Part shown: positions 2,178-28,187 of the stretch, piece after piece | Layout: each line of letters starts with the position of its first letter | Position numbering within the stretch: position 1 is the first letter of the stretch | From: Gemmatimonadota bacterium | GTDB taxonomy: Bacteria > Gemmatimonadota > Gemmatimonadetes > Gemmatimonadales > GWC2-71-9 | Direction of reading: 5' to 3' | Length of the DNA: 64,000 bases | Assembly: GCA_039588335.1 (NCBI GenBank) | Contig: JBDGZZ010000022.1 | Location: forward strand, 1,963 to 65,962 | Notes under the pieces: model-generated | The model's database searches: none | What the model saw: the letters and a program-made list of their open reading frames with translations, nothing else | What the model was told of the DNA's origin: nothing | Translations under genes and position numbers: made by a program

Positions 2178-3419
2178 ATGAATTCGACGGTCGATCATCG
2201 GAAGTTATACCGGGTACCCTGGAATCTATCAGACAACGCCATAGCATGGCTCGAGCCCACGGCCAAGTGCAATCTGGCCTGCGAGGGCTGTTATCGGGCC
2301 AACGTGAATCAACACAAATCGCTGGATGAAGTGGCTGCGGAACTGGATGTGTTTGAACGGTACCGGAACGTGGACGGCGTGTCTATCGCCGGAGGCGATC
2401 CTCTCACGCATCCCAAAGTCGTAGACATAGTGCGAATGGTGGCGGCAAGAGGTTGGAAGCCGATCCTCAACACCAATGGTCTTGCACTCACGTCCGAGTT
2501 GCTGCGCGAACTCAAGACGGTCGGGCTTTCCGGTCTCACGTTCCATATCGATAGCAAGCAGGGCAGGCCCAAGTGGAAGGGGAAGAACGAACAGGAACAC
2601 AATGAGCTGCGACTGCAGTACGCTCAGATGGTGGCGGAGGTCGGGGGACTATCCTGTGCATTCAATTCGACCGTTTATGGAGATACTCTGGATGCCGTTC
2701 CCGATCTAGTGGAATGGGCGCAGAAGCACATAGACATCGTCCATGTTATGGTATTTATCTGCTACCGGGCGGCGATACAGGAAGGCAATTTCGATTACTA
2801 CGCGGGAGGTGAAAAGGTCGACGTCAGCCCACTGGTGTACAGCTATGAGGACGCTCCTCAGCAGATCGACATCTCGGCGCACGATGTCGTGGCCAAGATC
2901 AGAGAGCGTTACCCCGACTACTCTCCGTGTGGCTATTTGAACGGAACGGAGTCGCCCGACTCCTTGAAGTGGCTCTTCGCGCTTCGTTTCGGCACTTCCG
3001 ATAGGGTCTACGGGTATGCCGGGCCGAAGATGATGGAGATGGCGCAGGTTTGGCACCACTTGCGAACCGGTAGGTACATGGCGTACGCCGATCCAAAGGT
3101 GTTGCGTAGAGGCAAGTCGATGATGTGGCTATGGCCGTTCGACAGGGGGGTTAGGCAGACCTTCGCACGTGCAGTGGTCGATCCGAAGATGATGTTCCGC
3201 AGACTGCACACTCAATCGATCATGATCATCCAACCGGTCGATGTGCTGCCTGATGGAAGGCAGAACATGTGTGATGGTTGCCCCGACATAACCGTCTGGG
3301 ACGGAAAGCTGGTTTGGTCTTGCCGGATGGAAGAATGCATAAACTATGGCCAGTTCATGCAGACCGTGCCTAAGGATAGCACAAAAAACAGTACGCAGGT
3401 CGAGTCGTCACTCTCCTGA
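2178..3419 (+). CDS. radical SAM protein with Cys-rich C-terminal extension
   Basis: CNLACEGCY (CxxxCxxC) at the N-terminus, followed by GGDPLTHP and a TIM-barrel-like region. The C-terminus has MCDGCPDITVWDGKLVWSCRMEEC. Confidence 0.85.
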   Translation: MNSTVDHRKLYRVPWNLSDNAIAWLEPTAKCNLACEGCYRANVNQHKSLDEVAAELDVFERYRNVDGVSIAGGDPLTHPKVVDIVRMVAARGWKPILNTNGLALTSELLRELKTVGLSGLTFHIDSKQGRPKWKGKNEQEHNELRLQYAQMVAEVGGLSCAFNSTVYGDTLDAVPDLVEWAQKHIDIVHVMVFICYRAAIQEGNFDYYAGGEKVDVSPLVYSYEDAPQQIDISAHDVVAKIRERYPDYSPCGYLNGTESPDSLKWLFALRFGTSDRVYGYAGPKMMEMAQVWHHLRTGRYMAYADPKVLRRGKSMMWLWPFDRGVRQTFARAVVDPKMMFRRLHTQSIMIIQPVDVLPDGRQNMCDGCPDITVWDGKLVWSCRMEECINYGQFMQTVPKDSTKNSTQVESSLS

Positions 3420-3553
3420 CAATGCCAAGCTCAAAGTGATTGGCGGATGGGCCATGGAAACGTGGCCCATCCGCAGTTACGCCGGTATCGCCGGCGTGCC
3501 CAGCCCCTGTATCAGTTACTTGCCCTGGCACCGCCAGACCGCTATCTCAACCA

Positions 3554-6500
3554 ATGATGGAAATGAAGAAGGGGATCTGCGGGATCTGCCCGGCCGGATG
3601 CTGGGTAGAGGTAGGTGTCGAAGATGGCCGGCTTGTTGGCATAGAAGCTGACACGGGCCATCCACTCGGCATGATCTGCTGGCGTGGTCGCTACGCTCCC
3701 GAGATAGTCCATTCCGAGCATCGTCTGCAGCATCCGATGCGTCGCATCGGTCCCAAGGGGTCCTACGACTTCGAGCGAATCACGTGGGACGAGGCCTACG
3801 ATAGCATTGTCGCCAACCTGAATACGATCAAGCGCGAGTCCGGTCCGGAAGCTGTCGCGATATACACTGGCCGAGGAGCGTTCGAACTTTCGTTGTGTGA
3901 CATGTTTCAGCCGAAGGGAGTAGCGGTCTCTTCGGCTTCCAACGTTCTGTTCCCGTTCGGATCGCCCAACACGATGGGAGTTGGGGCTCTCTGTTACGTC
4001 TCCTTTGCGATGATCGCACCACACGTGACGCTGGGCACGATGTTGGTGAATATGTTCAGCGACATCGAGAATGCTGAGTTGATCGTCGTGTGGGGAGCCA
4101 ATCCCGCAACCGACTCACCGCCGCTGGACATGCATCGATTGGAGGCCGCTGCAAGGCGTGGCGCGCGCGTGGTCGTGATCGATCCACGGAATACTGAAAC
4201 GGTGAAGCGTGTGAACGGCGAGTGGGTGCCCATCCGGCCAGGTAGTGACGGAGCGTTGGCGCTGGGCTTGATCAACGTGATGATCGAAGATGACCTGTAC
4301 GATGAAGATTTCGCGGTACACTGGTGCCACGGCTTCGACGATCTCGCTTCATACGTACAGCACTTCACGCCCGAGGTGGTGCAAGAGGTCACTGGCGTAT
4401 CAGCAGATACGGTGCGCACCCTGGCTCGTGCCATTTGCGCAGCGTCGGGAGCGTGCCCGCTCATGTACACGGGACTGGAGTACTCCAACAGCGGAGTCCA
4501 GGCGATCAGGGCCGTCCAGACTGTGTTTGCCTTGGCCGGGCATTTGGACGTGCCCGGGGGGATAGGGCTGGCAATGCGCGACAGCCATTTCCCAATCAAC
4601 CGGTCATGTAACATCCCCAATCCCAATGTCGATCGCGCCGTAGGGTGTGACGAGTTCCCCATCTACAGCAGCTACCGGGGGGAGTCACACGCACGCGGGC
4701 TGGTGGATTCAGTGCTTCAGGGCAGTCCATATCGCATCCGTGGACTGATCGTTCATGGGGCCTCGCTGCTGACGTCGTGGCCTCAGACGTCGGTTTGGAG
4801 CGACACCTTGCACGGGCTCGACTTTCTCGTCTGCATCGACCGCCAGATGACCGCGGACATGGCTGCAGCGGACATCATCCTTCCTGCCACGACGATGTTT
4901 GAGATCAACTCGTACATGGTCTACGGCCCCATCTTCCGATTGAGGGAGGCGCTGATCGATCCAGTGGGAGAGGCGAGAAACGACTATCTGATCATGGCGG
5001 AGTTGGCCAGGAGGCTGGGTTATGGAGACCGGTTTCCGCAGACTGAGGAAGAGTTGATTCGGTTCGCGTTGGATGGTTCGGGCCATTCGGTGGAGGAAAT
5101 CAGGGAGGCCGGTGGCTGGATCAAGATAGCCACACCGATGATGGAATACCGCAAGTGGGAGAAGGGCGGCCTTCGGGGTGACGGGGAGCCGGGGTTCGAT
5201 ACGCCGACCGGCAGGTTCGAGATACACTCGACGGTGCTGGAGGAGTACGGATACGAGCCGCTCCCGAAGTATGTGGAGCCGACAGAAGGGCCGCTGAACT
5301 CACCGGAGCTTCGTCAACAGTTTCCCCTCGTGTTCAATTCGGGTGCTAGACCGCAGACGGACTTCCGCTCGCAGCATCACGGGATCGATGCGCTGGTCAC
5401 GCATCATCCGGAGCCAACCGTTGAGTTGAATTCCCTGGATGCGGGTACCCGGGACATCCGGTCCGGCGATCTGGTAGAAGTACGGACGGGAAGGGGAGGT
5501 GTGAAGTTCCGTGCCCGGGTAACGGATGACATCGTTCCTGGCGCAGTCGAGTGCAGCATGGGTGGTGGCACGGCGGTCGGACCGAAAGCATGGCGCGAGT
5601 GGAACGTGAACCACCTCACCGACATTGCGAACCGTGATGAGATCAGCGGGTTTCCTGTCTACAAGGCCCTGTTGTGCGACGTGCGCAGGATCGAAAGAGG
5701 AGATTGCGCCACGCGTAATGGAGAACCCACGAGTTCCCTCCCCGAATCGGATGACTGGAGCAAGGCGATCGCAGAGCGAAGGGCACCGCGAAAGAGGATA
5801 TACCTCGATAATAATGCGACGAGCATCATGCCCGAAGCAGTGAGAGAAACGATGCAACCGTATCTGGCGTTTCTTCACGGCAATCCGTCGAGCATACACG
5901 GTGCGGGAAGGGATGCTCGAGCGGCTGTAGAGACGGCTCGCCGCCAGGTGGCAGGCCTGCTCAATTGCCGACCACGACGTGTGGTTTTCACAGGCGGCGG
6001 GTCAGAGTCGGATAACATGGCGCTCAAGGGCGTTGCCCTAGCTCATCGTGATCGCGGCAACCACATCGTCACCACGCGCGTCGAACACCCGGCCGTACTC
6101 GGCGCATGCGGTAGTCTGGAGAGAATGGGATTCCGCGTGACATACCTGCCGGTTGACGAATTCGGCATCGTCGACTCGGCCGATCTGAGTAAGTCGATTA
6201 CCGACAATACGATTCTCGTGTCCGTTATGATGGCAAACAATGAGGTTGGGTCGATACAGCCAATACGCGATCTCTGCGCTATCGCACACGAAAGAGGGGC
6301 CTTGTTTCATACCGATGCGGTACAGGCGGCAGGCAAGATACCTGTGGATGTGAATGAGTTGGATGTGGACCTTCTTACCGTGTCGGCGCACAAGCTTCAC
6401 GGTCCCAAGGGCGTCGGTGCCCTGTACAAGCGCAAGGAGATTCTCCTGGAACCGCTGATACACGGAGGAAAGCAGGAAAGCGGGCTTCGAGCGGGAACCG

Positions 6501-6949
6501 AGAACGTGCCAGCGATCGTTGGCTTTGGCAAGGCGGCTGAAATTGCCCGGCACTCGGTGGACGGTCATGACCGAGTGCAACAGCTTCGAGACTCGTTGGA
6601 ATCAACCATCAGGGAACGGGTACCAGAGGCAAAGCTCAACGGACATCCGGAACATCGCCTACCCAACACACTCAATCTCACTCTGCCCGGACTGCGAGGA
6701 GAGTCACTCGTGGTGGCGCTCGACCAACATGGCATCTCGCTGTCTTCTGGATCGGCGTGCAAGGCTGGATCACCGGACCCCACTCACGTCCTGATCGCCA
6801 TGGGAAAGACGCCGGAAGATGCACACTGTGCGGTGAGGTTCTCACTCTCGCGCTACACAACCGAAGATGAAGTGCGAGAAACCGGACGTGCCCTAGCCAG
6901 CGTGCTGGAGGAGATGGAGACGACGGTTAGGTTCCTACCCTGCAAGTAG
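3554..6949 (+). CDS. fusion protein: molybdopterin (bis-MGD) oxidoreductase N-terminal part plus NifS/IscS-type cysteine desulfurase C-terminal part
   Basis: The track ORF starts at 3440, but the conserved N-terminus MMEMKKGICGICPAGCWVEVG (CxxCxxxC...C 4Fe-4S motif) begins at 3554. A molybdopterin-binding beta-barrel (GDLVEVRTGRGGVKFRARVTDDIVPG) follows. After a ~35-aa linker comes IYLDNNATS...SAHKLHGPKG (PLP Lys)...SSGSACKAG (catalytic Cys). Confidence 0.85.
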   Translation: MMEMKKGICGICPAGCWVEVGVEDGRLVGIEADTGHPLGMICWRGRYAPEIVHSEHRLQHPMRRIGPKGSYDFERITWDEAYDSIVANLNTIKRESGPEAVAIYTGRGAFELSLCDMFQPKGVAVSSASNVLFPFGSPNTMGVGALCYVSFAMIAPHVTLGTMLVNMFSDIENAELIVVWGANPATDSPPLDMHRLEAAARRGARVVVIDPRNTETVKRVNGEWVPIRPGSDGALALGLINVMIEDDLYDEDFAVHWCHGFDDLASYVQHFTPEVVQEVTGVSADTVRTLARAICAASGACPLMYTGLEYSNSGVQAIRAVQTVFALAGHLDVPGGIGLAMRDSHFPINRSCNIPNPNVDRAVGCDEFPIYSSYRGESHARGLVDSVLQGSPYRIRGLIVHGASLLTSWPQTSVWSDTLHGLDFLVCIDRQMTADMAAADIILPATTMFEINSYMVYGPIFRLREALIDPVGEARNDYLIMAELARRLGYGDRFPQTEEELIRFALDGSGHSVEEIREAGGWIKIATPMMEYRKWEKGGLRGDGEPGFDTPTGRFEIHSTVLEEYGYEPLPKYVEPTEGPLNSPELRQQFPLVFNSGARPQTDFRSQHHGIDALVTHHPEPTVELNSLDAGTRDIRSGDLVEVRTGRGGVKFRARVTDDIVPGAVECSMGGGTAVGPKAWREWNVNHLTDIANRDEISGFPVYKALLCDVRRIERGDCATRNGEPTSSLPESDDWSKAIAERRAPRKRIYLDNNATSIMPEAVRETMQPYLAFLHGNPSSIHGAGRDARAAVETARRQVAGLLNCRPRRVVFTGGGSESDNMALKGVALAHRDRGNHIVTTRVEHPAVLGACGSLERMGFRVTYLPVDEFGIVDSADLSKSITDNTILVSVMMANNEVGSIQPIRDLCAIAHERGALFHTDAVQAAGKIPVDVNELDVDLLTVSAHKLHGPKGVGALYKRKEILLEPLIHGGKQESGLRAGTENVPAIVGFGKAAEIARHSVDGHDRVQQLRDSLESTIRERVPEAKLNGHPEHRLPNTLNLTLPGLRGESLVVALDQHGISLSSGSACKAGSPDPTHVLIAMGKTPEDAHCAVRFSLSRYTTEDEVRETGRALASVLEEMETTVRFLPCK

Positions 6950-6960: not shown

Positions 6961-7869
6961 CTAGTTCACCGGGCCGCTTGTCTTGGAGTCCGGAGCCAAC
7001 CCCACTTGGGCTCCTGGAAGGATCATTGCCAGGCCTCCGAGAATGGCTGTAGCGCCAATCGCCACCCGCCAACTCAGAGTCTCACCGAGTACGGCCGCTC
7101 CAGCCATCACGGCAACCAGAGGGTGAACCAGGGCCATCGACATCACCTTGGTCACTTGCATGTGTCTGAGTAGCCAATAGAAAAGAAAGAACGCGAGTGC
7201 TGAGCCGAAGAGTGAAAGGTAGGCCAAAGAGGCGATGGCAGAAGGCGTCCAGGAAACTCCTACGGGACCGCCCTCGACTGCTATTCCGACCAGCAATAGA
7301 GTGGAGCCGCCGATCGTCATCTGGTAGCTGGCTATCACCAGCGGGTCGATGTGCGTCCCGCGAGCCTTTATGAGCACCTGTGCCAGCGCCATCGTGGCGG
7401 AGCCGAGTACAAAAGCCAAGCACCCCCATACGGCCAGCGTGCTCTCGGCCTCGAGCTGATCGGCGAAAATCACCGCTACACCGATCAGCCCCAGCAGGGC
7501 ACCTGCGAGCTTGCCCTTGGTCATCGGTTCCCCGGGCAGCCCAATGTGTGCGAACATCAGGGCAAAGAGGGGGACGGTCGAGAACATCACAGCCGTGAGA
7601 CCGGAACTCACGTACTGCTGTCCCCAGAACTGAGCCGAGTATGCAATCCCTATTGTCAGCAGACCCGTTGCTGTCAACAAGCGCCAATCTCTAGAGCTGC
7701 GCGGTAGCGGGACGCGCCTGACAGCAAGCACAACTCCCAGCACGACGGCGGCAACGAGGAATCGGATTCCAGCGAAGGTGATTGGCGGTATTTCGTCCAG
7801 GCCGATGCGTACCGCTAACCAGGTGAGGCCCCACACGACCGACAGCACCAGCCATGCGAGAGCAGCCAC
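6961..7869 (-). CDS. EamA/DMT-family transporter
   Basis: 302 aa, about 10 hydrophobic helices, two EamA-like halves. Confidence 0.85.
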   Translation of the reverse strand: MAALAWLVLSVVWGLTWLAVRIGLDEIPPITFAGIRFLVAAVVLGVVLAVRRVPLPRSSRDWRLLTATGLLTIGIAYSAQFWGQQYVSSGLTAVMFSTVPLFALMFAHIGLPGEPMTKGKLAGALLGLIGVAVIFADQLEAESTLAVWGCLAFVLGSATMALAQVLIKARGTHIDPLVIASYQMTIGGSTLLLVGIAVEGGPVGVSWTPSAIASLAYLSLFGSALAFFLFYWLLRHMQVTKVMSMALVHPLVAVMAGAAVLGETLSWRVAIGATAILGGLAMILPGAQVGLAPDSKTSGPVN

Positions 7870-8688: not shown

Positions 8689-9666
8689 TCAGCCTCTCGT
8701 CCCGTCCAGTAAGTACGCCAGTCCGGCGAAAGCGGGCAATGGATGTGTGATCAAGTAAGTCGGGATGGCCTTCATGTATTCGGTGAACCGTCCCTTGTCC
8801 TCGAAGCGAGTACGAAAGCGGGCAGCTTTGAATGCCGATCCCATCTTCGGCACTATGCCACCCGCGATGTAGACGCCTCCACGGGCTCCCAGGGATAGCG
8901 CGAGGTCGGATGCAACCGTGCCCAGCATTTCGCTGAACATGTCGATGGCGTGAGTGCAGGCTGGGCATGTTCCGGAAAGGGCTCGGCGCGTAATGGTTGC
9001 CGGTGTCAGGCGTTCAGATGGCTTCCCCTCCACTGGGGCCAGCGCCGAATACAGATTTACGAGGCCGGGGCCGGAGAGTACGCGTTCTGCGGAGACGTGT
9101 CCCCACTCCCGGCGCATAAAGCCCAAGACTCCCGCTTCGAAATTGTCGAATGCCGGCAGAGTAACGTGCCCGCCTTCGGTGGCCAGTGCTATGCGCCCTG
9201 TCTCGGAAAAAACCAAACATGATACTCCGAGCCCGGTCCCGGGCCCGAGAACCGCCACAGGGGCGGCCGGCACGCGTTTGCCGCGTCCCATTTTCCGTTT
9301 GTCTTCATGCGGGAGATCCGGTATGGCCAAGGCCACTGCCGCAAAGTCGTTGATCACCTCGAGTCGTTCGAGGCGTAGTGCTCTACGAAGTCGCTCGATG
9401 GAAAATGACCACGGGCTGTTGGTGAAATCGATGACGTCGCCATCTATTGGTGAGGCCACGGCAAAGGCAGCTTGATACGGTGCAGGGTCGGGCGTGAAGC
9501 GCTTCAAGTACTCTTTCAAAGCAGTCCCCAGCCCCTTGTAATCTCGACTCCGAAAGACTGCCACGTGCTGTGGTTCTCGCCCTGGCGCCTGCAGGGCGAA
9601 TCGTGCGTTGGTTCCGCCGATATCGGCAAGTAATCGAGGGGCCTTGGGATTCAGTTTCTTCGCCAT
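8689..9666 (-). CDS. glk: glucokinase
   Basis: LLADIGGTNARFAL and GPGTGLGV motifs. ATG at 9666 (MAKKLNPKAPR...) is preferred over the track start at 9798. Confidence 0.9.
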   Translation of the reverse strand: MAKKLNPKAPRLLADIGGTNARFALQAPGREPQHVAVFRSRDYKGLGTALKEYLKRFTPDPAPYQAAFAVASPIDGDVIDFTNSPWSFSIERLRRALRLERLEVINDFAAVALAIPDLPHEDKRKMGRGKRVPAAPVAVLGPGTGLGVSCLVFSETGRIALATEGGHVTLPAFDNFEAGVLGFMRREWGHVSAERVLSGPGLVNLYSALAPVEGKPSERLTPATITRRALSGTCPACTHAIDMFSEMLGTVASDLALSLGARGGVYIAGGIVPKMGSAFKAARFRTRFEDKGRFTEYMKAIPTYLITHPLPAFAGLAYLLDGTRG

Positions 9667-9865
9667 GTCTCCGTCTCTTTGAGTTCTCTTCTTGCCTAGC
9701 GTCATTCTGGATTGGCTCTCAATATAGCAACTGTGGTAGGCACGTGCGGTTGCGAGAGCATTTGCATTGCAAAGGTCCGCACGAGCGGTAACTTCCACAT
9801 GTTTAGCGAGTTCTCGAAGGCGTTGATTACCCCGCCTGCTAGCGGGATGTCGCGATAGGCCTCAC

Positions 9866-11269
9866 ATGCCGACTAAGTCCAAGGTTCTCTCCAATAGGTG
9901 GCCCGTAGTGGTCGTCGCCAACACGCTTCCCGTCCGCCGGGTAAGGGAGAAGGGAAAACCGTCCTGGGAACGAAGTCCCGGTGGACTGGTTTCAGCCCTG
10001 ACGCCGATAGTGGAGCGGTCTCAGGGAGCCTGGGTAGGCTGGTCGGGAACGGCGGGGCGGGCGCCCGAACCATTTGTGCACGACAACATAGCCAACATCC
10101 CCGTTTCGATTTCGGCGGCGGAGTTACGTGGGTTCTACCAGGGTGTGTGCAATCGGACCCTGTGGCCTCTTTATCACGACGCGGTGCGGCAGCCGGAGTA
10201 CCACCGCCATTGGTGGGTGCAATATGTGGAGGTGAACGACCGTTTTGCAGAGATGGCGGCGCAAACCGTGGCTCCGGGAGGAACGGTCTGGATCCACGAT
10301 TATCATCTGCAACTGGTGCCGCAGATGCTGAGAAAGCGGCGCGGCGATGTCAGAATAGGATTCTTCCTGCACATTCCGTTTCCTCCGGAGGAACTCTTCA
10401 CCCGCCTTCCGTGGCGACGCCAGATACTCGAAGGCATCCTCGGTGCGGACGTGGTCGGCTTTCAGACCAAGGCTGCAACACAGAATTTCTCGAGACTGGC
10501 TCAACGGTACACCGGTGCTCGCGGCAAGGGGTCGAGGCTTTCGTTTGACGATCGCTCGGTACACATAGGCGCTTTCCCGATATCGATTGACTTTCAGAAG
10601 TATGAGTCGGTGGCCCAGAATCCAGCCGTGATCAACCACTCGGAGGAACTGCGCAAGACCCTGGGTCTGGGACGCAAGATCATTCTTGGTGTGGACCGTC
10701 TGGACTACACGAAGGGCATAGATGTACGGGTAAAGGCGTTCGGAGAGCTGTTGTCGATGGGGCACGATACGATTCGCAATACCGTGTTGGTTCAAGTGGC
10801 AGTCCCGAGTCGGGTACGCATCGAAGAGTACCAGGAATTGAGAAGTACGGTGGAGGAGCTAGTCGGGCAGATCAACGGGCGTTTCGGTGAAGTCGGGGTA
10901 GCGCCCGTGCACTACCTGCGTCGTAACATGCCCTTCGAGGAACTCATTGCGATGTATCGTGCGGCCGACGTGATGCTGGTAACACCGTATTGCGATGGGA
11001 TGAACCTCGTAGCCAAGGAATACGTTGCGACTCGGTTCGACAACACCGGAGTGTTGGTCCTGAGTGAGTTTGCTGGTGCGGCCCCCGAACTGCGCAGCGC
11101 GCTGCTTGTGAACCCGCACGACGTAGATGGCTTGGCAGAGGGAATGGGCCGCGCCCTGTCTCTGTCTTCGAAGGATGCTCGTAGAAGAATGCGGGCAATG
11201 AGGCGGGTCGTGCGCCGCAATACGGTGCACGATTGGGCCAGTTCCTTCATGAAGGCGCTGAAGGCGTGA
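9866..11269 (+). CDS. otsA: alpha,alpha-trehalose-phosphate synthase (GT20)
   Basis: GGLVSAL, WVGWSG, LWPLYH, VWIHDYHL and FFLHIPFP motifs; 467 aa. Confidence 0.9.
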   Translation: MPTKSKVLSNRWPVVVVANTLPVRRVREKGKPSWERSPGGLVSALTPIVERSQGAWVGWSGTAGRAPEPFVHDNIANIPVSISAAELRGFYQGVCNRTLWPLYHDAVRQPEYHRHWWVQYVEVNDRFAEMAAQTVAPGGTVWIHDYHLQLVPQMLRKRRGDVRIGFFLHIPFPPEELFTRLPWRRQILEGILGADVVGFQTKAATQNFSRLAQRYTGARGKGSRLSFDDRSVHIGAFPISIDFQKYESVAQNPAVINHSEELRKTLGLGRKIILGVDRLDYTKGIDVRVKAFGELLSMGHDTIRNTVLVQVAVPSRVRIEEYQELRSTVEELVGQINGRFGEVGVAPVHYLRRNMPFEELIAMYRAADVMLVTPYCDGMNLVAKEYVATRFDNTGVLVLSEFAGAAPELRSALLVNPHDVDGLAEGMGRALSLSSKDARRRMRAMRRVVRRNTVHDWASSFMKALKA

Positions 11270-11700: not shown

Positions 11701-11920
11701 TAGTAGTCCCAGGAATTCACGATCGAATCAGCACCATCTGCCAGCAGGACTGGTGCTTGGCAAGAGAATCTGGCAAAAACAATGGCCGCTGGCAACGGTC
11801 GGCCCACGGTGAGCCCGACTCGCGGACTGCAACCGCTGCCGATATCTTAGCGGCCTAGGTGCTGCGAAATACCGGGAGCCTATGACGGTCTGCCGGTACC
11901 CGAGGACACAAGGAGAGATA

Positions 11921-13852
11921 ATGCGCGGACAGATATGCGTTCCCTTACTTGCGGGAATACTACTACTGCCAGCCTCGCCACTTCATACCCAGGTATTTCC
12001 GGAATCGGACTCCGATACGACATGGTACACTGTGAATGGGAAGAGGCACGGCGTGAGCTTCTTCCCAGAGCATCGACACCCCGGCGTGCAATACGAAGCC
12101 AGTGAGACACTGACGTTCGATCGATACCACACCGCCAACGTCATGTACGAATGGCTCAAACGTTGGGCGGAGCAGTATCCGAACATCTTGGAGCTGTACG
12201 AAGTTGGCAGGAGCTTCGAAGGCAGGCCGATTATGCAGGTGACCATAACAAACAAGGAGACGGGCAGGGCAGAAGACAAACCGGCTGCGTTCTTCGAAGG
12301 AGGAAGACACAGCGGGGAGATCACTAGTAGTGAGTCAGTGCTGTGGCTAGCCAAGCATCTCCTGGAGAGCTACGGCACGGATGAAGCTATCACCGACCTC
12401 ATCGACACGAAGGCGATATACCTCAAGCCTCAGAACAATCCTGATGGTTCGAACCTCTATCTGAACACGGCACAATCGAACCGTAGTACACTGAGGCCAC
12501 ACGACAACGACCGCGATGGCTTGATCGACGAGGATCCGCCGGAAGATCTCGATGGTGACGGAGTCATTTACCAGATTCGGTACCGCCCCGGTCTAGATGA
12601 TGACGAAGAAGCCACGATGATTCTGGACGATCGCGATCCGTCGGGGCGTCTGATGCGACGTGCGACGAATCCCGCTGAAGGTGAATGGATCGTCCTTTCT
12701 GAAGGCATAGACAACGATGGCGATGGTCGATTCAACGAGGATGGTATCGGAGGACTCGATCTACATCGCAACTACCCTGAGAATTGGCGACCAGACGCCG
12801 GAGGAGACAAAACAGGTCGTGGTTACACGCAGTCTGGCGCCGGCGAGTTTCCCCTGAGCGAAACGGAAACGCGGGCAACCGTGCTGTGGGTCCTTTCACA
12901 CCCGAACATATCCGTCGCCAACTCGATGGACACCAGAGTCCCGATGCACCTCCGGCCGCCTTCCACGTCGAAGAGTGCAGAACGCATGTATCCCGAGGAC
13001 CTCGCGTACTATGTCTACTTCGACAGCGTAGGCATCGACGTCACGGGATATCCTTGGGCAGGCGACGTTTACGAAACGTATCGAACGCGTGTTCCCATCA
13101 ATCCGTTCACCGGCGACTCAGCGCGGCCAAGTCCACTCTTCGGGCACAGTCCCGACTTTGGATACTGGTATTACGGGGCAATCTGGTACGGTGACGAACT
13201 GTGGAACGGCGGTGCCATGGAGGACTACAATGAAGACGGACTGCTGGATCAGGTCGACGCACTCACGTGGGATGACGAAGGCAATGGTGGAAACGGATTC
13301 CGCGAGTGGGAGCCGTTCGAGCATCCGACGCTGGGCCAGGTAGAGGTCGGAGGGTTCCACCCCAAGTTCTTCTCCCAGAACGGCCCACCAGAGGAACTGG
13401 AGCGCTGGGCCCGCGGTCAGGCCTTGTTCAATCTACAGATGATGTTGCATTTGCCTCAGATCGATGATGTCGCAGCGAACGTTCGCACACTGAGTGAGGA
13501 CGGCGACAGCACTACCTATGAGATCACCGTGAGCTGGTCCAACAGCGGGCAGCTCCCCACCGCACTACGTCAGGCGCAACTCGTCAAGATCGTCCGCGAG
13601 GACAGAGTACGGCTGGAATTCGACAACTCCTTCATGGACGATGAAGATCGCAAATTGAGGATCGTAACGCCGAGTCGGAGGGACAAGGTGGTTGGAGCTG
13701 GTTGGACGCAGCCTAGCGAATCGAAGTCGGTGACGTTCGAGGTACGGACCTACGGCATTCCGGGTGTCGAAGGAACCGTACATGTCATGTCTACCCGCGG
13801 CGGACTCGTGAAAGTACCGCTCGTGCTAGGTGAACCGGAGAGTTCTCAGTAG
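11921..13852 (+). CDS. secreted M14-family zinc carboxypeptidase-like protein with Asp-rich Ca-binding-type inserts
   Basis: Signal peptide from ATG 11921 (MRGQICVPLLAGILLLPASP). Zn motif GGRHSGEITSSE. DNDRDGLIDEDPPEDLDGDGVI and DNDGDGRFNEDG repeats. Confidence 0.85.
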   Translation: MRGQICVPLLAGILLLPASPLHTQVFPESDSDTTWYTVNGKRHGVSFFPEHRHPGVQYEASETLTFDRYHTANVMYEWLKRWAEQYPNILELYEVGRSFEGRPIMQVTITNKETGRAEDKPAAFFEGGRHSGEITSSESVLWLAKHLLESYGTDEAITDLIDTKAIYLKPQNNPDGSNLYLNTAQSNRSTLRPHDNDRDGLIDEDPPEDLDGDGVIYQIRYRPGLDDDEEATMILDDRDPSGRLMRRATNPAEGEWIVLSEGIDNDGDGRFNEDGIGGLDLHRNYPENWRPDAGGDKTGRGYTQSGAGEFPLSETETRATVLWVLSHPNISVANSMDTRVPMHLRPPSTSKSAERMYPEDLAYYVYFDSVGIDVTGYPWAGDVYETYRTRVPINPFTGDSARPSPLFGHSPDFGYWYYGAIWYGDELWNGGAMEDYNEDGLLDQVDALTWDDEGNGGNGFREWEPFEHPTLGQVEVGGFHPKFFSQNGPPEELERWARGQALFNLQMMLHLPQIDDVAANVRTLSEDGDSTTYEITVSWSNSGQLPTALRQAQLVKIVREDRVRLEFDNSFMDDEDRKLRIVTPSRRDKVVGAGWTQPSESKSVTFEVRTYGIPGVEGTVHVMSTRGGLVKVPLVLGEPESSQ

Positions 13853-14173: not shown

Positions 14174-14284
14174 AACAGGTAGCAGGGAGCAGGGAGCGGT
14201 TCACTCCTGGGGGAGCTGAGATCCAATCGCTGTTCCTAGGCTCTGCTCCCCGCTCCCGGCTCTTTGCTCCCTGCTCCCCGTTTT
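14173..14284. terminator. long imperfect inverted repeat between convergent genes (candidate bidirectional terminator) built from heptamer repeats
   Basis: The left arm AAAACAGGTAGCAGGGAGCAGGGAGCGG pairs with the right arm CCGCTCCC..TGCTCCCTGCTCCCCGTTTT. It is flanked by A4/T4 tracts. Confidence 0.45.
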
Positions 14285-17200
14285 AGAACATCCCCCCGAT
14301 CACTCCATCCACCCTTGGCTGTAGGCGTTGCAGCCAATCCTCGAAGTACTGCAGTTGTGATCTCTCATCGGCTGTGAACTCGCGGGGCCAATTGCTCACT
14401 TGGCCGTACAGGCGCGAAAGGCGGTTGCGGAGTTCAGTGAGAAGAGGCCGGATGGCCGCGATCTCCTCGGACACGGCAGTGTACTGGCTTGCTGAGTCTT
14501 CTGGCATGCCCTCGATCCGCTCCGCGATCTTGGATACGGTGTCGACAGTGACCAAATGTCTCCGCAGCAGCCCGGCGACGTATTGCACCTGCTCGTGCCA
14601 GCCCAATAACTCCGATTCGGCCACCGCAACACGTGGGTCCTGGAGTACGGTGACAGTCTGCTCCTGGCTGCTCTCACCTGTGGTGAGCCGTACCGTGTAC
14701 ACACCTGGGAGCACCCAAGGACCGGAGGGGCCCCGGTTCATTCCGGAGACGGGCATGGGCGGCCCCAGGTTCTCATACCTGAGGTTCCACAGTATGCGAT
14801 TCACGCCTCCGGATGTCTGACTCCTCAGTCGACTCACCTGATCTCCAGCTGCGTCGAAGACCGTCACTGTAACGTTGTCATCTTCGTTCTTCTCACGCAG
14901 GTAGTAGTCGATGATCGCCCCGGGTGGCTGATTCTGGCCTCGGAATATCATGTCGCCGGTATGGCCGCGCTCGCCGCCATAACGAATCATCCGAATGGGC
15001 TCTATGCCGAACAGATGAGCATCCGATGCGAGTACCGCGGGCGTCGTTTCCTGCAGCGAGTTGATGTTGTCCAAGATCCATATGCCACGTCCGTGAGTTC
15101 CCACAACTAGGTCGTTGTCGCGGGGGTGCACAACGAGGTCATTGAACGCGAGGGTGGGCATATTGCTCTTCAGTTCTATCCAATGGTCTCCCCCATCGTT
15201 GGTGTAGAAGAGACCCAGCTCCGTACCGAGATAGACAACCTGGGCGTTACGCGGATCTTCTCGCACCGTACGCAGGACGCGATCTGCCGGAAGGTCGCCC
15301 GTGATGGACGTCCACGTGTTGCCGTTGTCGTTTGACTGGAACAGGTAGTTGGCGAAATCATCATTCCGGTAGTTGTTGACGGCGACGTAGACTCTTCCTT
15401 CGACAAATCGTGAGGGTTCGATTCCGGAAATCCAGGAAGAGGACGGCAGTCCGGGCACAGCGTCAGTCACGTTGTTCCAGGTTGCCCCATCGTCGAGGGA
15501 CACTTGCAGGTTACCATCGTCTGTGCCGGCGTACAGAAGACCTTGCCTCACCGGCGACTCGACAATTGCAGTCAGCGTCGGGTAATAGGGAATGCCGTCG
15601 TCAAGCGAAAGCGTCGTGTCGTGTGCCCGTTCTCCCATGAGCGGCAGTTCTCGACGGTTGACGCCGGTTGTGAGATCTCCCAGTGACACCCAGGTATCCC
15701 CGCGATCGGTGCTCTTCCAAGCCTGGTTGGTGCCCGCATAGATGGTGTTGTTGTCATGCGGTGAGATGTAGAACGGGCCGTCCCAGTTTGCCGGGGCCAT
15801 CGCGTTGCCCAACTCGGGTTCTGGCGTTCCCGGGCCCCAAGCATCCCAATTTCTGCGGGCGCCTATTGCACCGCGAGGAGCATCGGGTCGGATCCAGGCG
15901 CGGGCCCCGCTTGCGAGGTCGACGCGCGAGAGACCGAGATACTGGGACTCGGTGTAAAGAGTGCGGTTGTCAGTCGTGTCCACGAGGTTGAGGAAACCAT
16001 CCCCGCCACCCGTCTTGATCCAGTCTTGGAACAGAATACCCTCTGCTCGGAACGTGGTGCTCGGACCCATCCAGCTTCCGTTGTCCTGAAGTCCACCGTA
16101 TACCCAGTAAGGCTCCCTCATATCGACAGTCACACGGTAGAATTGGCTCACGGGCAGGTTCGTTACGTAGAGCCAGGTCACACCGCGATCGTAGGAGATG
16201 CCGAGTCCTCCATCGTCTGCCTTCATCACATGGCGTGAATCATGCGCACTCACCCACACCAGTCTGTCGTCTCCGTGCAGCGACTGTCGTGCAGGCCGAA
16301 AAGTCTTCCCACCGTCATCAGAATAGCTGTAGGTGTTCACCATGTAGATGCGCTGGTCGTCGTTGGGGTCGACAAGCGGTTGACTGGCGTACATCGGACG
16401 AGGGTTCCAGTCGCTCATGAACTCCCAGGTTTCGCCCTTATCTTCCGAGCGATAAACGCCGGCCCTGCGTTCTCCGTAGGCCGTTGAAGCGTTGTAACGA
16501 TACCCTTGCTCGACGGATATGTAGACGATGTTGGGATCGGACCTGTAGATTGATATGCCGATGCGGCCCTTGTCTCCCTGAGGAAGATCGTTGGTCAACT
16601 CACGCCAATTCCGGCCGCCGTCGGTCGATTTGTAGAGTCCGCTCCCAGGCCCGCCACCGTTGAAGCCGTATGGTCTCCGTCGTCTCTGGTACATGGCCGC
16701 ATACATCGTGGTCGGGTCCAGTGGGTCGATCGCGACGTCAACGGCTCCTGTGTTCTCGTCTACATGCAGCACCCGAGTCCAGGAAGTGCCTCCGTCCTCT
16801 GACATATAGAGGCCGCGCTCTTCGCTTGGACCCCAGAGGTGACCCATGGCAGCGACGAACACGATGTCCGGGTGGGTCGGGTGCAGCACGATCCGCCCGA
16901 TATGGTGACTGTCCTCTAGTCCCATGTTGGTCCACGTAGCGCCACCGTCCGTGGACTTGTACGCCCCGTTTCCCCATGATGAGCTTTGGCGGCTAGCCCG
17001 CTCACCCGTGCCCACCCAGACCACACTCGTGTCGAGCTGGTGAACGGTCACGTCCCCGACCGAATGCGTGGCCTCACGGTGGAACACCGGCGTGAACGTG
17101 ATCCCGTTATTCCCAGTCTTCCAGACGCCACCGGTGGCAGAGGCCACGTAGAACGTGTATGGGTTTGACTCGACCACAGCGAGATCGACGATACGGCCGC

Positions 17201-17342
17201 TCATTGTAGCAGGTCCGATCTCGCGAAACCGTAGGTTGGAGAAGGCCTGCTCGGTTGTGGACTGGGCCTCTATGGTGGAGGCCAAGGACACCGCCAGACA
17301 CGTGGCGAGGCCGATCCGGATGTATGCAACGTGACGCTTCAT
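14283..17342 (-). CDS. secreted BNR/Asp-box repeat protein (sortilin/VPS10-like, glycosyl-hydrolase-like beta-propellers)
   Basis: Signal peptide. At least 10 Asp-box motifs (STDGGATW, SEDGGTSW, STDGGRNW, SEDKGETW, SDDGGKTF, SYDRGVTW, STDRGDTW, SLDDGATW, SNDNGNTW, TNDGGDHW). Confidence 0.85.
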   Translation of the reverse strand: MKRHVAYIRIGLATCLAVSLASTIEAQSTTEQAFSNLRFREIGPATMSGRIVDLAVVESNPYTFYVASATGGVWKTGNNGITFTPVFHREATHSVGDVTVHQLDTSVVWVGTGERASRQSSSWGNGAYKSTDGGATWTNMGLEDSHHIGRIVLHPTHPDIVFVAAMGHLWGPSEERGLYMSEDGGTSWTRVLHVDENTGAVDVAIDPLDPTTMYAAMYQRRRRPYGFNGGGPGSGLYKSTDGGRNWRELTNDLPQGDKGRIGISIYRSDPNIVYISVEQGYRYNASTAYGERRAGVYRSEDKGETWEFMSDWNPRPMYASQPLVDPNDDQRIYMVNTYSYSDDGGKTFRPARQSLHGDDRLVWVSAHDSRHVMKADDGGLGISYDRGVTWLYVTNLPVSQFYRVTVDMREPYWVYGGLQDNGSWMGPSTTFRAEGILFQDWIKTGGGDGFLNLVDTTDNRTLYTESQYLGLSRVDLASGARAWIRPDAPRGAIGARRNWDAWGPGTPEPELGNAMAPANWDGPFYISPHDNNTIYAGTNQAWKSTDRGDTWVSLGDLTTGVNRRELPLMGERAHDTTLSLDDGIPYYPTLTAIVESPVRQGLLYAGTDDGNLQVSLDDGATWNNVTDAVPGLPSSSWISGIEPSRFVEGRVYVAVNNYRNDDFANYLFQSNDNGNTWTSITGDLPADRVLRTVREDPRNAQVVYLGTELGLFYTNDGGDHWIELKSNMPTLAFNDLVVHPRDNDLVVGTHGRGIWILDNINSLQETTPAVLASDAHLFGIEPIRMIRYGGERGHTGDMIFRGQNQPPGAIIDYYLREKNEDDNVTVTVFDAAGDQVSRLRSQTSGGVNRILWNLRYENLGPPMPVSGMNRGPSGPWVLPGVYTVRLTTGESSQEQTVTVLQDPRVAVAESELLGWHEQVQYVAGLLRRHLVTVDTVSKIAERIEGMPEDSASQYTAVSEEIAAIRPLLTELRNRLSRLYGQVSNWPREFTADERSQLQYFEDWLQRLQPRVDGVIGGMF

Positions 17343-17558
17343 TTAGGGGGGATACCTCCGTTGCCGTGAACGGGTGTAACGGCCTTGGGGTCGATGGGCC
17401 TCAAGGTATCGCACCGGCACCCTCGGGGGTAGCCGCGAATGCCTCTGACCGGTAGGTACCGCTCCCAGCTCCCGCTCCCCTGTCGGAATCGCTTTCGACC
17501 GGTAGATTCCCCTCGATTCGCAAGTCCCGCACGCAGCGTAATAACCAGGGAGGATCCG

Positions 17559-20366
17559 ATGAGCCGCCGGAGCCTAGGCGTCGCCTTGGCTGGTGTTGCC
17601 ATCTTTGGAACATGGCACGCTTCGCCAGTCAGTGCGCAGTCCCACGACTCGACGTATGCCGCCAGAATCAGTGAATACACCACCGACGATCGTTTCATCA
17701 ATGAACTGGTGGACCATCTGCCACTGTCGGCGGAGGTGCCGTCGCCCATGGATCATTTCGGCACGATCATAGGGGCGCCCGACATTCTTCATACAACAAC
17801 CGACATCTACGGTTACATGAGGGCTCTGGAATCGGCTTCGTTGCGGGTAGCGGTCCGGGCAATCGGGAAGACCGAAGAGAACCGTGACATGATAGAGGTC
17901 GTGATCGCGGACGAGAATACGATCGCTGATTTGGAGCGCTATCGGGGCTACCTCAATGCGATTGCCGACCCCCGTGGGATCAGTGACGAAGAGGCACAAG
18001 CACTTCTGGCAGATGCGAAGCCGGTCTATTACGTGATGGCTGGCCTGCATTCTCCCGAGACCGGCCCCCCCGAGATGGTGATGGAACTAGCGTACCGGCT
18101 TGCGGTCGAGGAATCGTCATTCATCCGGGCCATTAGAGACAACGTCATCGTGGTCATCTTGCCCGTGGCAGAGCCTGACGGGCGCGACCGGATGGTAGAT
18201 GCTTACCGGTACAAGAAAGCGAATCGTGAAGTTGGTCCGTCCCTGCGGTATTGGGGTAAGTACGTCGCTCATGACAACAACCGCGATGGCTATGGCCTGG
18301 GGCTGGCATTGACTCGCAACGTGTTGGGGTCGTTCATGCACTGGAAGCCCACCGTGATGCACGATCTGCATGAGTCGGGATACTTCCTCTACGTATCGAC
18401 TGGGACTGGCCCGTACAATCAGGAAATAGATGCACTGACGATAGACGAGTGGCACAACATAGCGCACGAAGAAGTGACGCAGCTGACCAAATACGGCATG
18501 CCAGGAGTATGGACACACGCGTTCTACACCGGATGGGCTGCCAACTACCTGTCTTGGATTGCAAACACACGCAACAGCATTGGCCGCTTCTACGAGACTC
18601 TGGGTAACGGGGGAGCCGATACCCGGGAACGCGAACTACCTGCCCGTGCGACGTCTAGAGAGTGGTATCGCCCGAGTCCGCCGTTGGAGAAAGTGACGTG
18701 GTCACTGAGGAACAACACCAATTACATGCAGAGTGGAGTCCTAGTTGCACTCAAGTACGCTGCGGACAATCGCGAGGACTTCGTGGAGAACTTCTACCTA
18801 CGAGGAAAGCGAGCGGTCGAGCGTGGCCGGACGGAGGCTCCATTCGCCTGGGTGATCCCGCAAGGACAGCGGCGGCCGACGGCGGCGGCCAACCTGGCCA
18901 ACCTCATGCTGCAGCAGGGAGTTGAGTTACATGTAGCGGAGCGGGAGCTCGAATGGTTCTCTGACTCTGCTGCGGACGAGCGGAGTACAGCAGCAGAAGG
19001 GTCGTTTGTGATTCGCATGGATCAGCCGTACCGCACCGTGGTACAGGTCCTGTTTGGTGAGCAGGAGTTCCCGAGCGGTGCGACTCCACCCTACGATGAT
19101 GTGGGCTGGACGCTTCCGTATCTCCATGGAGTGGAGGCAATTCCGGTAGCTGATTCGAGCATTCTGGAAGCCAGAATGCGGCCGCTTGCAGAGCCGGTGG
19201 CCCACAGCGGCAGATTCGAGGGTAAGAATCGTTCCTACTACCTGGTCAACAACACCACCGACGACAATGTCACCATGTTCAGATTCCGGCTGGGTGACGT
19301 TCAGATGGAGGCCGCGGAACAGGAATTCGTGATCGACGACCGTACCTATAGCAGCGGGAGTCTCATCATTCGGTCAGAGGGAAACGCACAAGAGGTCGTA
19401 GAACGAGTGGAGGCCGTTGCCGAGGACCTTGGGATCGAGGTGACGGGTGTACGGGACCGTCCGGCTGTGAGCACTCACGACCTGGATGTCCCACGGATAG
19501 CTCTGGTGCACACGTGGGTGTCGACTCCGCAGGATGCAGGATGGTGGCGTCTCACCTTCGACCGATTCGAGATTCCCTATAGCTATCTCTCAGAGCAGGA
19601 TCTGGCGGTGAACGATCTGAGTGAGTTCGATGTCGTGATCATGCCCAATCACCGGGCGAGTCCCCAGAACCTGGTGAGCGGTACCACGGTAGTCGGTGAT
19701 CCGATTCCCTGGCAAAGAACGGACGAGTACTCGGCCATCGGGATCATTGACGAGACTTCAGATTTGAGGCAGGGAATGGGATATGAGGGCCTGAAGAACC
19801 TCAAATCCTTCGTGGAACGGGGAGGCGTGTTCATTACTGAGGGGAGCGCAGCAGCCTTTCCGATCCACATGGCCATAACGCGACGGGTGAGTATCAGAGC
19901 ACCGCGTCAACTAGTCGCTCGTGGCTCGGTGCTCAAGACCAGCGTGGAAGACGATACGAGTCCGATCGTGTACGGGTATCCGGAGTCTGTCGGAGCCTAT
20001 TTCAGCTCGCAGCCCGTATTTCAGGTGGACAAGAACGACGGTGGTACGAGCTCACCCGAATGGCTACGGGACGAGGTATGGGAAAAAGAGATCCCACGGG
20101 TCGTATTGAGTTTCGCGGAGAAGGACGTGCTCATGAGTGGTATGCTGAGTGGCGAGAGTGAGATTGCCGGCACACCGGCAATCGTAGACGTACCCGTGGG
20201 GCAGGGACACGTAGTGCTGTTCGCTATCAGGCCATTCTGGCGTCTGGAGACATTCGGCAGTCACGCATTCGTGTTCAACACGATGCTTCACTGGAACGAC
20301 CTTCGTGTGGGGTGGCCCACACGTCCGGTCGAGGAGGAAGATGAAACGGTAGCTGGAGGTCGATAG
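17559..20366 (+). CDS. secreted large M14-family metallocarboxypeptidase-like protein
   Basis: ATG 17559 is preceded by AGGGAGGA. Signal peptide MSRRSLGVALAGVAIFG...VSAQ. Zn motif AGLHSPETGPPE. Confidence 0.85.
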   Translation: MSRRSLGVALAGVAIFGTWHASPVSAQSHDSTYAARISEYTTDDRFINELVDHLPLSAEVPSPMDHFGTIIGAPDILHTTTDIYGYMRALESASLRVAVRAIGKTEENRDMIEVVIADENTIADLERYRGYLNAIADPRGISDEEAQALLADAKPVYYVMAGLHSPETGPPEMVMELAYRLAVEESSFIRAIRDNVIVVILPVAEPDGRDRMVDAYRYKKANREVGPSLRYWGKYVAHDNNRDGYGLGLALTRNVLGSFMHWKPTVMHDLHESGYFLYVSTGTGPYNQEIDALTIDEWHNIAHEEVTQLTKYGMPGVWTHAFYTGWAANYLSWIANTRNSIGRFYETLGNGGADTRERELPARATSREWYRPSPPLEKVTWSLRNNTNYMQSGVLVALKYAADNREDFVENFYLRGKRAVERGRTEAPFAWVIPQGQRRPTAAANLANLMLQQGVELHVAERELEWFSDSAADERSTAAEGSFVIRMDQPYRTVVQVLFGEQEFPSGATPPYDDVGWTLPYLHGVEAIPVADSSILEARMRPLAEPVAHSGRFEGKNRSYYLVNNTTDDNVTMFRFRLGDVQMEAAEQEFVIDDRTYSSGSLIIRSEGNAQEVVERVEAVAEDLGIEVTGVRDRPAVSTHDLDVPRIALVHTWVSTPQDAGWWRLTFDRFEIPYSYLSEQDLAVNDLSEFDVVIMPNHRASPQNLVSGTTVVGDPIPWQRTDEYSAIGIIDETSDLRQGMGYEGLKNLKSFVERGGVFITEGSAAAFPIHMAITRRVSIRAPRQLVARGSVLKTSVEDDTSPIVYGYPESVGAYFSSQPVFQVDKNDGGTSSPEWLRDEVWEKEIPRVVLSFAEKDVLMSGMLSGESEIAGTPAIVDVPVGQGHVVLFAIRPFWRLETFGSHAFVFNTMLHWNDLRVGWPTRPVEEEDETVAGGR

Positions 20367-22970: not shown

Positions 22971-23192
22971 GGGAACTCTCAGACGGGAGAAGGATGGAGC
23001 AAGATACCGGTAGATGGTGAAATGGCAAGTGGGACACCGGTTTGCGGGCGTTGCATGAGTCCGGGCTGCCGGTGGACGAGCCTTGATGTGGGCCCGTACA
23101 TTGGGAATACAGGAGGTCCCGGTGAGCCCAGTACGAATCAACTCCGGTAGGGCATGGGGAGTGACAATACAAGGCATGAGATCGAGGTCCGA

Positions 23193-27245: not shown

Positions 27246-27246
27246 C

Positions 27247-28155: not shown

Positions 28156-28187
28156 GTCATTCCCTTTCTGAAGGATGGGCGGTCTGG

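Follow-up and report, generated by a model that had tools for sequence, protein, structure and literature searches.

The stretch of DNA analysed here (64,000 nucleotides, hereafter the window) contains at positions 3554-6949 a gene whose product is very probably an orthologue of metallopterin-dependent ergothioneine synthase (MES), and on the evidence of sequence comparison we put the probability of this assignment at roughly 0.88. The gene family to which it belongs is already known as molybdopterin- or metallopterin-dependent ergothioneine synthase, and the current understanding of the enzyme is unchanged. MES constitutes a third, oxygen-independent route to ergothioneine, and no other Mo/W enzyme is known to form a C-S bond. 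It was described by Beliaeva and Seebeck (JACS Au 2022, PMC9516567) in the form of four proteins, CaMES (UniProt A0A7V4WV16), hvMES, EaMES and AbMES. The original prediction knew of no characterised example of this bacterial fusion and had named beforehand a search of domain architectures as a check that could overturn it; searching architectures and literature led to a known family with an assigned function, the functionally tested MES (PMC9516567), and the claim is refuted.

Gene structure and domain composition

ORF listing and translation show a single unbroken gene on the forward strand, 1131 codons long and with no internal stop. The longest ORF extends from a TTG at 3440 to 6949, and the ATG at 3554, which gives 1131 amino acids, is the likely start, since homologues begin with the same M-x-x-KKGICGIC. 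No twin-arginine motif was found in the 38-codon upstream extension, which argues that the protein has no Tat signal, in agreement with the original prediction. Pfam matches are Molybdop_Fe4S4 (residues 3-54), Molybdopterin (57-486, E 1.8e-40), Molydop_binding (599-705) and Aminotran_5 (749-1108, E 3.7e-82), and this order within one polypeptide (PF04879, PF00384, PF01568, PF00266) is the MES architecture. The single ORF and the ordered domains thus confirm the predicted uninterrupted fusion of a Mo enzyme, a linker and a desulfurase. The features are as follows.

3554-6949, + strand: predicted MES gene, complete, 1131 codons, stop at 6947-6949; 61% full-length identity to Caldithrix abyssi MES (L081:34-3441)
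3554-3715, + strand: Fe4S4 cluster domain, residues 1-54 (Pfam PF04879)
3722-5011, + strand: molybdopterin (bis-MGD) catalytic domain, residues 57-486 (Pfam PF00384, E 1.8e-40)
3992-3994, + strand: Cys147 codon, predicted Mo/W ligand, equivalent to CaMES Cys153; invariant in 114/114 homologues
5348-5668, + strand: molybdopterin dinucleotide-binding domain, residues 599-705 (Pfam PF01568, E 2.1e-17)
5690-5794, + strand: variable interdomain linker, residues 713-747; conservation 0.41, the protein minimum; length varies here (alignment A1)
5798-6877, + strand: class V PLP-dependent cysteine desulfurase domain, residues 749-1108 (Pfam PF00266, E 3.7e-82)
6392-6394, + strand: Lys947 codon, PLP lysine (SAHK), equivalent to CaMES Lys952 by alignment
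6758-6760, + strand: Cys1069 codon, predicted persulfide-forming cysteine (SGSAC), equivalent to CaMES Cys1074
6827-6829, + strand: Cys1092 codon, equivalent to CaMES Cys1097; present in 113/114 homologues
6941-6943, + strand: Cys1130 codon, penultimate residue, in the tail ...RFLPCK, equivalent to CaMES Cys1135; candidate relay cysteine

The N-terminal CxxCxxxC...C cluster noted earlier is formed by C9-x2-C12-x3-C16...C42; these Fe4S4 cysteines correspond to CaMES Cys14/17/21/48 and are invariant in 114 of 114 homologues. Cys147 aligns with the cysteine of the acetylene hydratase motif MYMCIGN and of the PsrA motif SLCTAP, which we take to be the metal ligands Cys141 and Cys173, respectively. 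Among the structures in the copy of the PDB that was searched, which include no full-length MES, the one nearest to the N-terminal module is the W-dependent acetylene hydratase (2e7z, E 2.4e-65), as it is for CaMES (PMC9516567). The linker, predicted at about 35 residues and found at residues 713-747, is the least conserved segment, with a mean majority fraction of 0.41 versus 0.67-0.78 in the rest of the protein. The C-terminal part is a complete class V desulfurase, as had been proposed, with its PLP lysine at K947 and its catalytic cysteine at C1069. It passes the NCBIfam model of an IscS subfamily (NF002806, 318 bits, cut-off 304) and stays under the cut-offs of NifS (TIGR03402, 486 bits, cut-off 530.75) and IscS (TIGR02006, 385 bits, cut-off 643). 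Profile search of the window protein returned no MES-specific model from Pfam or NCBIfam, and public databases label these proteins "cysteine desulfurase NifS", "IscS subfamily" or "aminotransferase class V". Recognition as MES gives a gene listed as NifS a concrete predicted product, and its practical value lies in corrected annotation.

Conservation of functionally implicated residues

The importance of several of these residues is known from CaMES mutants: C153S produces hardly any ergothioneine, K952A abolishes synthesis, C1074S and C1135S each reduce output 2000-fold, and mutation of the conserved Cys1097 has only a 2-fold effect (PMC9516567). Equivalents of CaMES Cys153, Lys952, Cys1074, Cys1097 and Cys1135, the family criteria of Table S1 in that paper (PMC9516567), are all kept in the window protein. 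Altogether nine functionally implicated residues are present, each invariant in 113-114 of 114 homologues; the one homologue without Cys1130 is a truncated sequence.

Relationship to tested enzymes and distribution

Over 1130 residues, the window protein shares 61% identity with the Caldithrix abyssi enzyme, whose activity has been tested. For hvMES the identity is no lower than 62.6% and for EaMES no lower than 55.9%; these values are lower bounds, as both sequences come from machine-read (OCR) supplement text with errors, for which reason the genuine C. abyssi locus was used for residue mapping. Across 72 EgtD-linked homologues, 308 alignment columns show conservation of 97% or more; the window protein matches 305 of them, and the three mismatches (T231S, E246D, V442I) are all conservative. 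A neighbor-joining tree places the window protein in a clade with hvMES, which is also active in Escherichia coli and converts trimethylhistidine (PMC9516567), and with four EgtD-linked loci (L010, L012, L014, L016) whose proteins are 70-72% identical to it. Gemmatimonadetes homologues are included in Table S1 of the original description (PMC9516567).

More than 120 database proteins share this fusion, as do 145 genomic loci from many bacterial phyla and from archaea, at 54-80% identity, which rules out an assembly artefact. Identity to the window protein lies at 70-80% in at least 120 full-length fusion proteins, and a collection with one genome per species contains 359 stretches that encode a relative. 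The family thus extends far beyond the roughly 55-80 genomes that had been reported in 2022.

Genomic neighborhood

De novo clustering of neighboring genes identified a sole widely conserved neighbor, an EgtD-type methyltransferase (Pfam Methyltransf_33, E about 1e-103), present at 40 of the 80 loci examined first, in most cases immediately 3' and on the same strand, and it was the identity of this neighbor that allowed the fusion to be recognised as MES. Where the full gene is flanked by at least 1.5 kb on both sides, egtD adjoins MES in 65 of 96 loci. Co-encoding of EgtD was reported for 55 of about 80 genomes and is supportive rather than strictly defining (PMC9516567). The window itself departs from this pattern, as tblastn found no EgtD (Methyltransf_33) homologue within its 64 kb (best E 0.82), and an adjacent egtD is likewise rare (about 3 of about 30) among the relatives that share 70% identity or more with the window protein. 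When genome contigs were scanned for EgtD, the matches listed came mostly from Actinomycetota and other lineages, and the few Gemmatimonadota EgtD loci among them had no MES within 3 kb. The nearest complete genome is CP070666.1.

The window also encodes Rnf and three sets of 2-oxoacid:ferredoxin oxidoreductase, in keeping with the anaerobic niche in which MES carriers are reported to live (PMC9516567). A convergent gene for an EamA-type transporter lies 11 bp downstream of the MES gene. The radical SAM gene upstream (2178-3419) was considered as a functional partner and rejected: it stands beside the fusion in only five Gemmatimonadota loci, unrelated genes, for a B12-radical SAM protein and a DAO oxidoreductase, intervene before the fusion in two loci (L003 and L017), and its matches are to generic radical-SAM core models only, all far under the cut-offs. 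Further upstream, an M20 amidase (785-2053) was considered as a possible connection to the breakdown of ergothioneine; conserved in position in L001 and L002 only, it scores 410 bits with the ErtE model (cut-off 520) but passes a model of the allantoate-amidohydrolase subfamily.

Alternative explanations

The window protein lies in a large clade of MES genes, from Gemmatimonadota, KSB1, Latescibacterota, Fidelibacterota and others, in which egtD is mostly unlinked. A reading that we consider unlikely is that these enzymes use hercynine scavenged from the environment or sulfurate another heterocycle; either, if true, would take Mo-dependent formation of C-S bonds further than the de novo synthesis of ergothioneine. 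Unlikely, too, is a MES-like paralogue, in a clade that has lost its egtD linkage, whose substrate would be another heterocycle or a different compound altogether rather than trimethylhistidine. The missing egtD in the window and the mostly unlinked closest homologues speak for such a paralogue, as does the suggestion of the MES authors that related Mo enzymes might sulfurate other heterocycles (PMC9516567). Against it, among the 42 unlinked sequences, the window protein included, only 4 of the 308 conserved columns fall below 90% retention, each still reaching 88%. EgtD-linked members are nested in the same clade, whose member hvMES accepts trimethylhistidine, and neighbor clustering gave no alternative conserved neighbor.

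It is very improbable that the protein is instead a Moco sulfurase or maturation factor, in which the sulfido ligand would be installed once, for an unrelated redox reaction of its own or for another enzyme. The idea rests on an analogy with ABA3/MOCOS or IscS-FdhD raised when the gene was first described, and cysteine desulfurases do sulfurate Moco in other systems (PMC9516567). Against this, a MOSC domain is missing from the Pfam matches, and the domains are arranged in the opposite order to those of ABA3/MOCOS. Moreover, the metal site of CaMES K952A remains active and moves 34S back and forth between ergothioneine and trimethylhistidine (PMC9516567), which indicates that in CaMES sulfur is supplied at each turnover and solely in cis; in vivo, cysteine-derived sulfur enters the CaMES product stoichiometrically over many turnovers. 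We regard as practically negligible the chance that two genes, a Mo oxidoreductase and a NifS, were merged through an assembly or sequencing error at the junction. One public assembly, of a protein in the same 90% cluster, does show fragmentary gene calls (381, 713 and 745 aa, on a contig of 8.5 kb), and an in-frame TTG (5672) and GTG (5681) lie shortly 5' of the desulfurase domain, so that the earlier statement that no independent start could give an intact NifS is not strictly right. Judged from these codons, internal initiation of the desulfurase is conceivable and may occur, which would leave the main conclusion unaffected. An error at the junction is nevertheless refuted by the conservation of the same unbroken fusion in so many independent proteins and loci, and the finding that the fusion is functionally obligatory in CaMES (PMC9516567) also speaks against it.

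Proposed mechanism

In MES the C-terminal PLP domain converts L-cysteine to alanine by desulfuration (PMC9516567). According to the published proposal, which is backed by the mutants (PMC9516567), this would load a persulfide onto the equivalent of Cys1069, from which sulfur would be relayed within the same polypeptide, via the tail cysteine (Cys1130), to a Mo or W bis-MGD centre held by Cys147. In the proposed further steps a Mo(VI)=S species would form, hercynine (N-alpha-trimethylhistidine) would attack its sulfido ligand through C2 of the imidazole ring, and ergothioneine would depart from Mo(IV), the centre being resulfurated before the next turnover. We infer that the window protein acts likewise, on hercynine supplied by an EgtD encoded elsewhere or by uptake. 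Of the two functions originally envisaged, the self-sulfurating Mo enzyme matches this mechanism, although its substrate and product (trimethylhistidine to ergothioneine) had been missed; an enzyme acting on polysulfide generated in cis is unsupported.

Comparison with known systems

CaMES, hvMES, EaMES and AbMES resemble the window protein in being four-domain fusions with no Tat signal. CaMES is of nearly the same length (1136 versus 1131 aa) and shares the C-terminal tail ...RF(L/I)PC(K/R). The window protein falls in the hvMES clade, most of which has lost the linkage to egtD; in the clade of CaMES and EaMES that linkage is almost always kept. The host of the window protein, unlike that of CaMES, is a Gemmatimonadota-like genome.

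Acetylene hydratase of Syntrophotalea (Pelobacter) acetylenica (2E7Z) is likewise cytoplasmic, with an N-terminal Fe4S4 cluster, bis-MGD and a cysteine metal ligand. It has CQSCD where the window protein has CGICP, so that Asp13, the catalytic Asp of acetylene hydratase that follows the second cluster cysteine, is replaced by Pro; furthermore, acetylene hydratase lacks a desulfurase domain and hydrates its substrate with no sulfur transfer. Polysulfide and thiosulfate reductases (PsrA/PhsA) were rejected as candidates, given the missing twin-arginine motif and an NCBIfam PhsA score of 243 bits against a cut-off of 694. So was a housekeeping NifS/IscS, which would be a free-standing protein of about 400 aa, since the domain is fused here and misses the TIGR03402 and TIGR02006 cut-offs.

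In ABA3/MOCOS and IscS-FdhD, as is proposed for MES, a NifS-type desulfurase passes cysteine sulfur to Moco as a terminal sulfido ligand. Those systems sulfurate once, at maturation, through a MOSC domain or an FdhD partner, whereas in MES the sulfido ligand would itself be the transferred group, renewed at every turnover within a DMSO-reductase-family enzyme. ABA3/MOCOS combine an N-terminal NifS-like with a C-terminal MOSC domain; in the window protein the desulfurase is C-terminal and its partner belongs to the DMSO reductase family. Finally, the O2-dependent sulfoxide synthase EgtB and the rhodanese-type EanB serve the same step as MES, C2-sulfuration of EgtD-made trimethylhistidine, but with unrelated folds and chemistry.

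Architecture and distribution of the fusion

The sole open frame at the fusion gene on the + strand runs from 3440 (TTG) to 6949 (ORF list), and its translation from ATG 3554 gives 1131 residues without a stop. Pfam recognizes four domains in this protein, in the following order:

residues 3-54, Molybdop_Fe4S4
residues 57-486, Molybdopterin (E 1.8e-40)
residues 599-705, Molydop_binding (E 2.1e-17)
residues 749-1108, Aminotran_5 (E 3.7e-82)

Among NCBIfam models the C-terminal part is nearest to NifS/IscS, and the N-terminal part gives weak matches to FdhF, PhsA and DmsA, all far under cut-offs. The cluster motif C9-x2-C12-x3-C16...C42 lies at the extreme N-terminus. Since no twin-arginine motif was found in the 38 codons 5' of ATG 3554 and aligned homologues share the start M-x-x-KKGICGIC, the protein is predicted to be cytoplasmic. 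The 35-residue linker between the modules is poorly conserved (conservation 0.41). The ORF list, translation, Pfam order, N-terminal cysteine cluster and missing Tat motif bear out the anatomy given in the original prediction; its claim that no independent start could yield an intact NifS part is not strictly accurate, as in-frame TTG 5672 and GTG 5681 lie just 5' of the desulfurase domain.

The domain-architecture search proposed earlier found the fusion to be widespread: the protein database holds the same four Pfam domains in at least 120 full-length proteins at 70-80% identity, and a one-genome-per-species scan found 359 stretches encoding a relative, which together rule out an artefact. 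One database match is 100% identical to the window protein and carries only the name 'cysteine desulfurase NifS'. For the first neighbor analysis 80 of the 359 stretches were fetched, originating from Gemmatimonadota, KSB1, Latescibacterota, Fidelibacterota, Acidobacteriota, Actinomycetota, Chloroflexota, cable bacteria, Desulfomonilaceae and Nitrospinota, and, among archaea, from Methanoculleus and one MAG labelled Thaumarchaeota. In the cluster of near-identical sequences around the database match P0001, one public assembly (8.5-kb contig) has the sequence called as fragments of 381, 713 and 745 aa, the first named 'anaerobic selenocysteine-containing dehydrogenase'; gene callers or errors in the local sequence thus sometimes break up the fusion.

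Assignment to a known enzyme family

ORFs around the fusion in the 80 loci were called and clustered without prior assumptions. The sole widely conserved neighbor family is a protein of ~336 aa (40/80 loci), mostly encoded directly 3' of the fusion in the same direction, at a median distance of 55 bp. Judged by its sequence and its match to Pfam Methyltransf_33 ('histidine-specific methyltransferase', E about 1e-103), this neighbor is EgtD, which catalyzes the first step in making ergothioneine. Exactly this fusion was described by Beliaeva & Seebeck (JACS Au 2022, PMC9516567) as metallopterin-dependent ergothioneine synthase (MES). The homologues CaMES (from Caldithrix abyssi), EaMES, AbMES and hvMES in E. 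coli formed ergothioneine from trimethylhistidine (hercynine), the C-terminal module alone is an active cysteine desulfurase, and the CaMES variants C153S, K952A, C1074S and C1135S are essentially inactive (PMC9516567). Sulfur transfer is confined to one polypeptide, the metal site exchanges sulfur reversibly between ergothioneine and trimethylhistidine, and Table S1 of that study already includes three Gemmatimonadetes homologues (PMC9516567).

We compared the window protein with the C. abyssi gene product (locus L081:34-3441, 1136 aa), and found 61% identity over 1130 aligned residues with 6 gap positions. All residues serving as family criteria in PMC9516567 are present in the window protein.

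Key residues of CaMES and their counterparts in the window protein
Fe4S4 cluster: Cys14/17/21/48, Cys9/12/16/42
Mo/W ligand (predicted in the window protein): Cys153, Cys147
PLP lysine: Lys952, Lys947
Persulfide cysteine: Cys1074, Cys1069
Conserved, minor effect: Cys1097, Cys1092
C-terminal relay cysteine: Cys1135, Cys1130

These residues are invariant in 113-114 of 114 full-length homologues. Among 72 EgtD-adjoining homologues 308 columns are at least 97% conserved, and the window protein matches 305 of them, its three mismatches being T/S, E/D and V/I. On this evidence the gene appears to be an ordinary MES orthologue of an already known family. The suggestion of a 'self-sulfurating Mo enzyme' was thus close to the truth, sulfur transfer in MES taking place within one polypeptide, and what did not stand is the statement that no characterised example exists, as a 2022 paper had already described the family, its product and what the key residues do (PMC9516567). 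Two points are left over, namely the missing annotation and where the unlinked clade described below obtains its hercynine.

Linkage to egtD

No EgtD homologue is encoded within the whole 64-kb window. EgtD occurs in 87/145 MES loci and in 65 of the 96 that have the complete gene with 1.5 kb or more on each flank; of the relatives sharing at least 70% identity with the window protein, only about three have it. In a neighbor-joining tree the family falls into two clades. CaMES and EaMES belong to one that is almost always EgtD-linked; the other contains the window protein together with the experimentally active hvMES, a large number of unlinked genes, and linked members here and there (loci L010, L012, L014, L016, L019, L025, L029 and others). 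Because the family-conserved columns are retained in the unlinked sequences (only four fall below 90% retention, each at 88%), the simplest reading is loss of linkage, not change of function.

Flanking genes and the rest of the window

The genes adjoining MES are syntenic only with Gemmatimonadota MAGs, e.g. CP070666.1:

785-2053, +, hydantoinase/carbamoylase-family (M20) amidase, two genes upstream of MES
2178-3419, +, radical SAM protein, 413 aa, directly upstream of MES
6961-7869, -, EamA/YedA-type metabolite transporter, convergent with MES, 11-bp gap

This synteny makes Gemmatimonadota the most likely phylum of origin of the window. Beyond close relatives in that phylum these three genes are not conserved, and we therefore leave them out of the MES system. 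The amidase scores 425 bits on the allantoate-amidohydrolase subfamily model (cut-off 399) and 410 bits, under the cut-off of 520, on that of ErtE, the N-carbamyl-L-glutamate amidohydrolase of ergothioneine catabolism; the position of this amidase near an ergothioneine synthase is probably coincidence. The radical SAM protein gives generic core matches alone (Tes, NirJ2, HpnH, W-cofactor maturase; about 50 bits, far under cut-offs) and has 71-75% identical counterparts in five Gemmatimonadota loci; in L003 and L017 unrelated genes lie between it and MES. The transporter is kept after MES in L002 and L023, and that it moves hercynine or ergothioneine is pure speculation. In L043-L059 (Desulfomonilaceae and relatives) a metallo-beta-lactamase-fold protein, a tungsten-type aldehyde:ferredoxin oxidoreductase and a ferredoxin recur upstream of MES-EgtD (clustering, Pfam), which is probably lineage synteny.

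Other features of the window are as follows:

8689-11269 and 23154-29822, sugar-metabolism genes
11882-13852, 17439-20366 and 61321-63924, three large M14 zinc-carboxypeptidase-domain proteins
14283-17342, 1019-aa BNR/sortilin-repeat protein
31055-32335, -, second class V aminotransferase-fold protein, stand-alone, 426 aa (Aminotran_5, E 1e-45)
33986-36855, +, and 50145-52992, -, two two-subunit 2-oxoacid:ferredoxin oxidoreductase sets
37868-49158, +, Rnf-type cluster: RnfB-like FeS protein, RnfC, RnfD, FMN-binding RnfG, RnfE/A, then ApbE

An ORF for a 1679-aa fused pyruvate:ferredoxin-oxidoreductase-like protein (38716-43755) lies between the RnfB-like gene and RnfC, an unusual arrangement, and three OFOR/PFOR systems are found in 20 kb. 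Rnf, ApbE and the three 2-oxoacid:ferredoxin oxidoreductase sets are in keeping with the low-oxygen lifestyle that has been reported for organisms with MES. The window also encodes a fatty-acid desaturase and a c-type cytochrome. The sugar genes comprise glucokinase, trehalose-6-phosphate synthase OtsA, a GH15 trehalase-like hydrolase and an oxidative pentose-phosphate block (6-phosphogluconolactonase, G6PD, 6PGD, PGI). The M14 and BNR/sortilin-repeat proteins suggest an extracellular protein-degrading lifestyle.

Proposed mechanism and comparison with known enzymes

Cysteine desulfuration at the PLP site has been shown for the MES family, and mutants support a route by which the sulfur passes as a persulfide from Cys1074 via Cys1135 to the metallopterin module, all within one chain (PMC9516567). 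It was proposed that the trimethylhistidine imidazole attacks a Mo(VI)=S sulfido, and that ergothioneine leaves Mo(IV), after which the center is resulfurated (PMC9516567). The window protein would perform the same chemistry via Cys1069, Cys1130 and Cys147, and its poorly conserved linker would let the two modules dock.

Among solved structures, tungsten acetylene hydratase (2e7z, E 2.4e-65) comes closest to the N-terminal module, with Thermus PsrA next. Acetylene hydratase has a catalytic Asp after the second cluster Cys, whereas the window protein has Pro at the same place; we therefore rejected a hydratase identity. Acetylene hydratase as the nearest structure agrees with the report for MES itself (PMC9516567).
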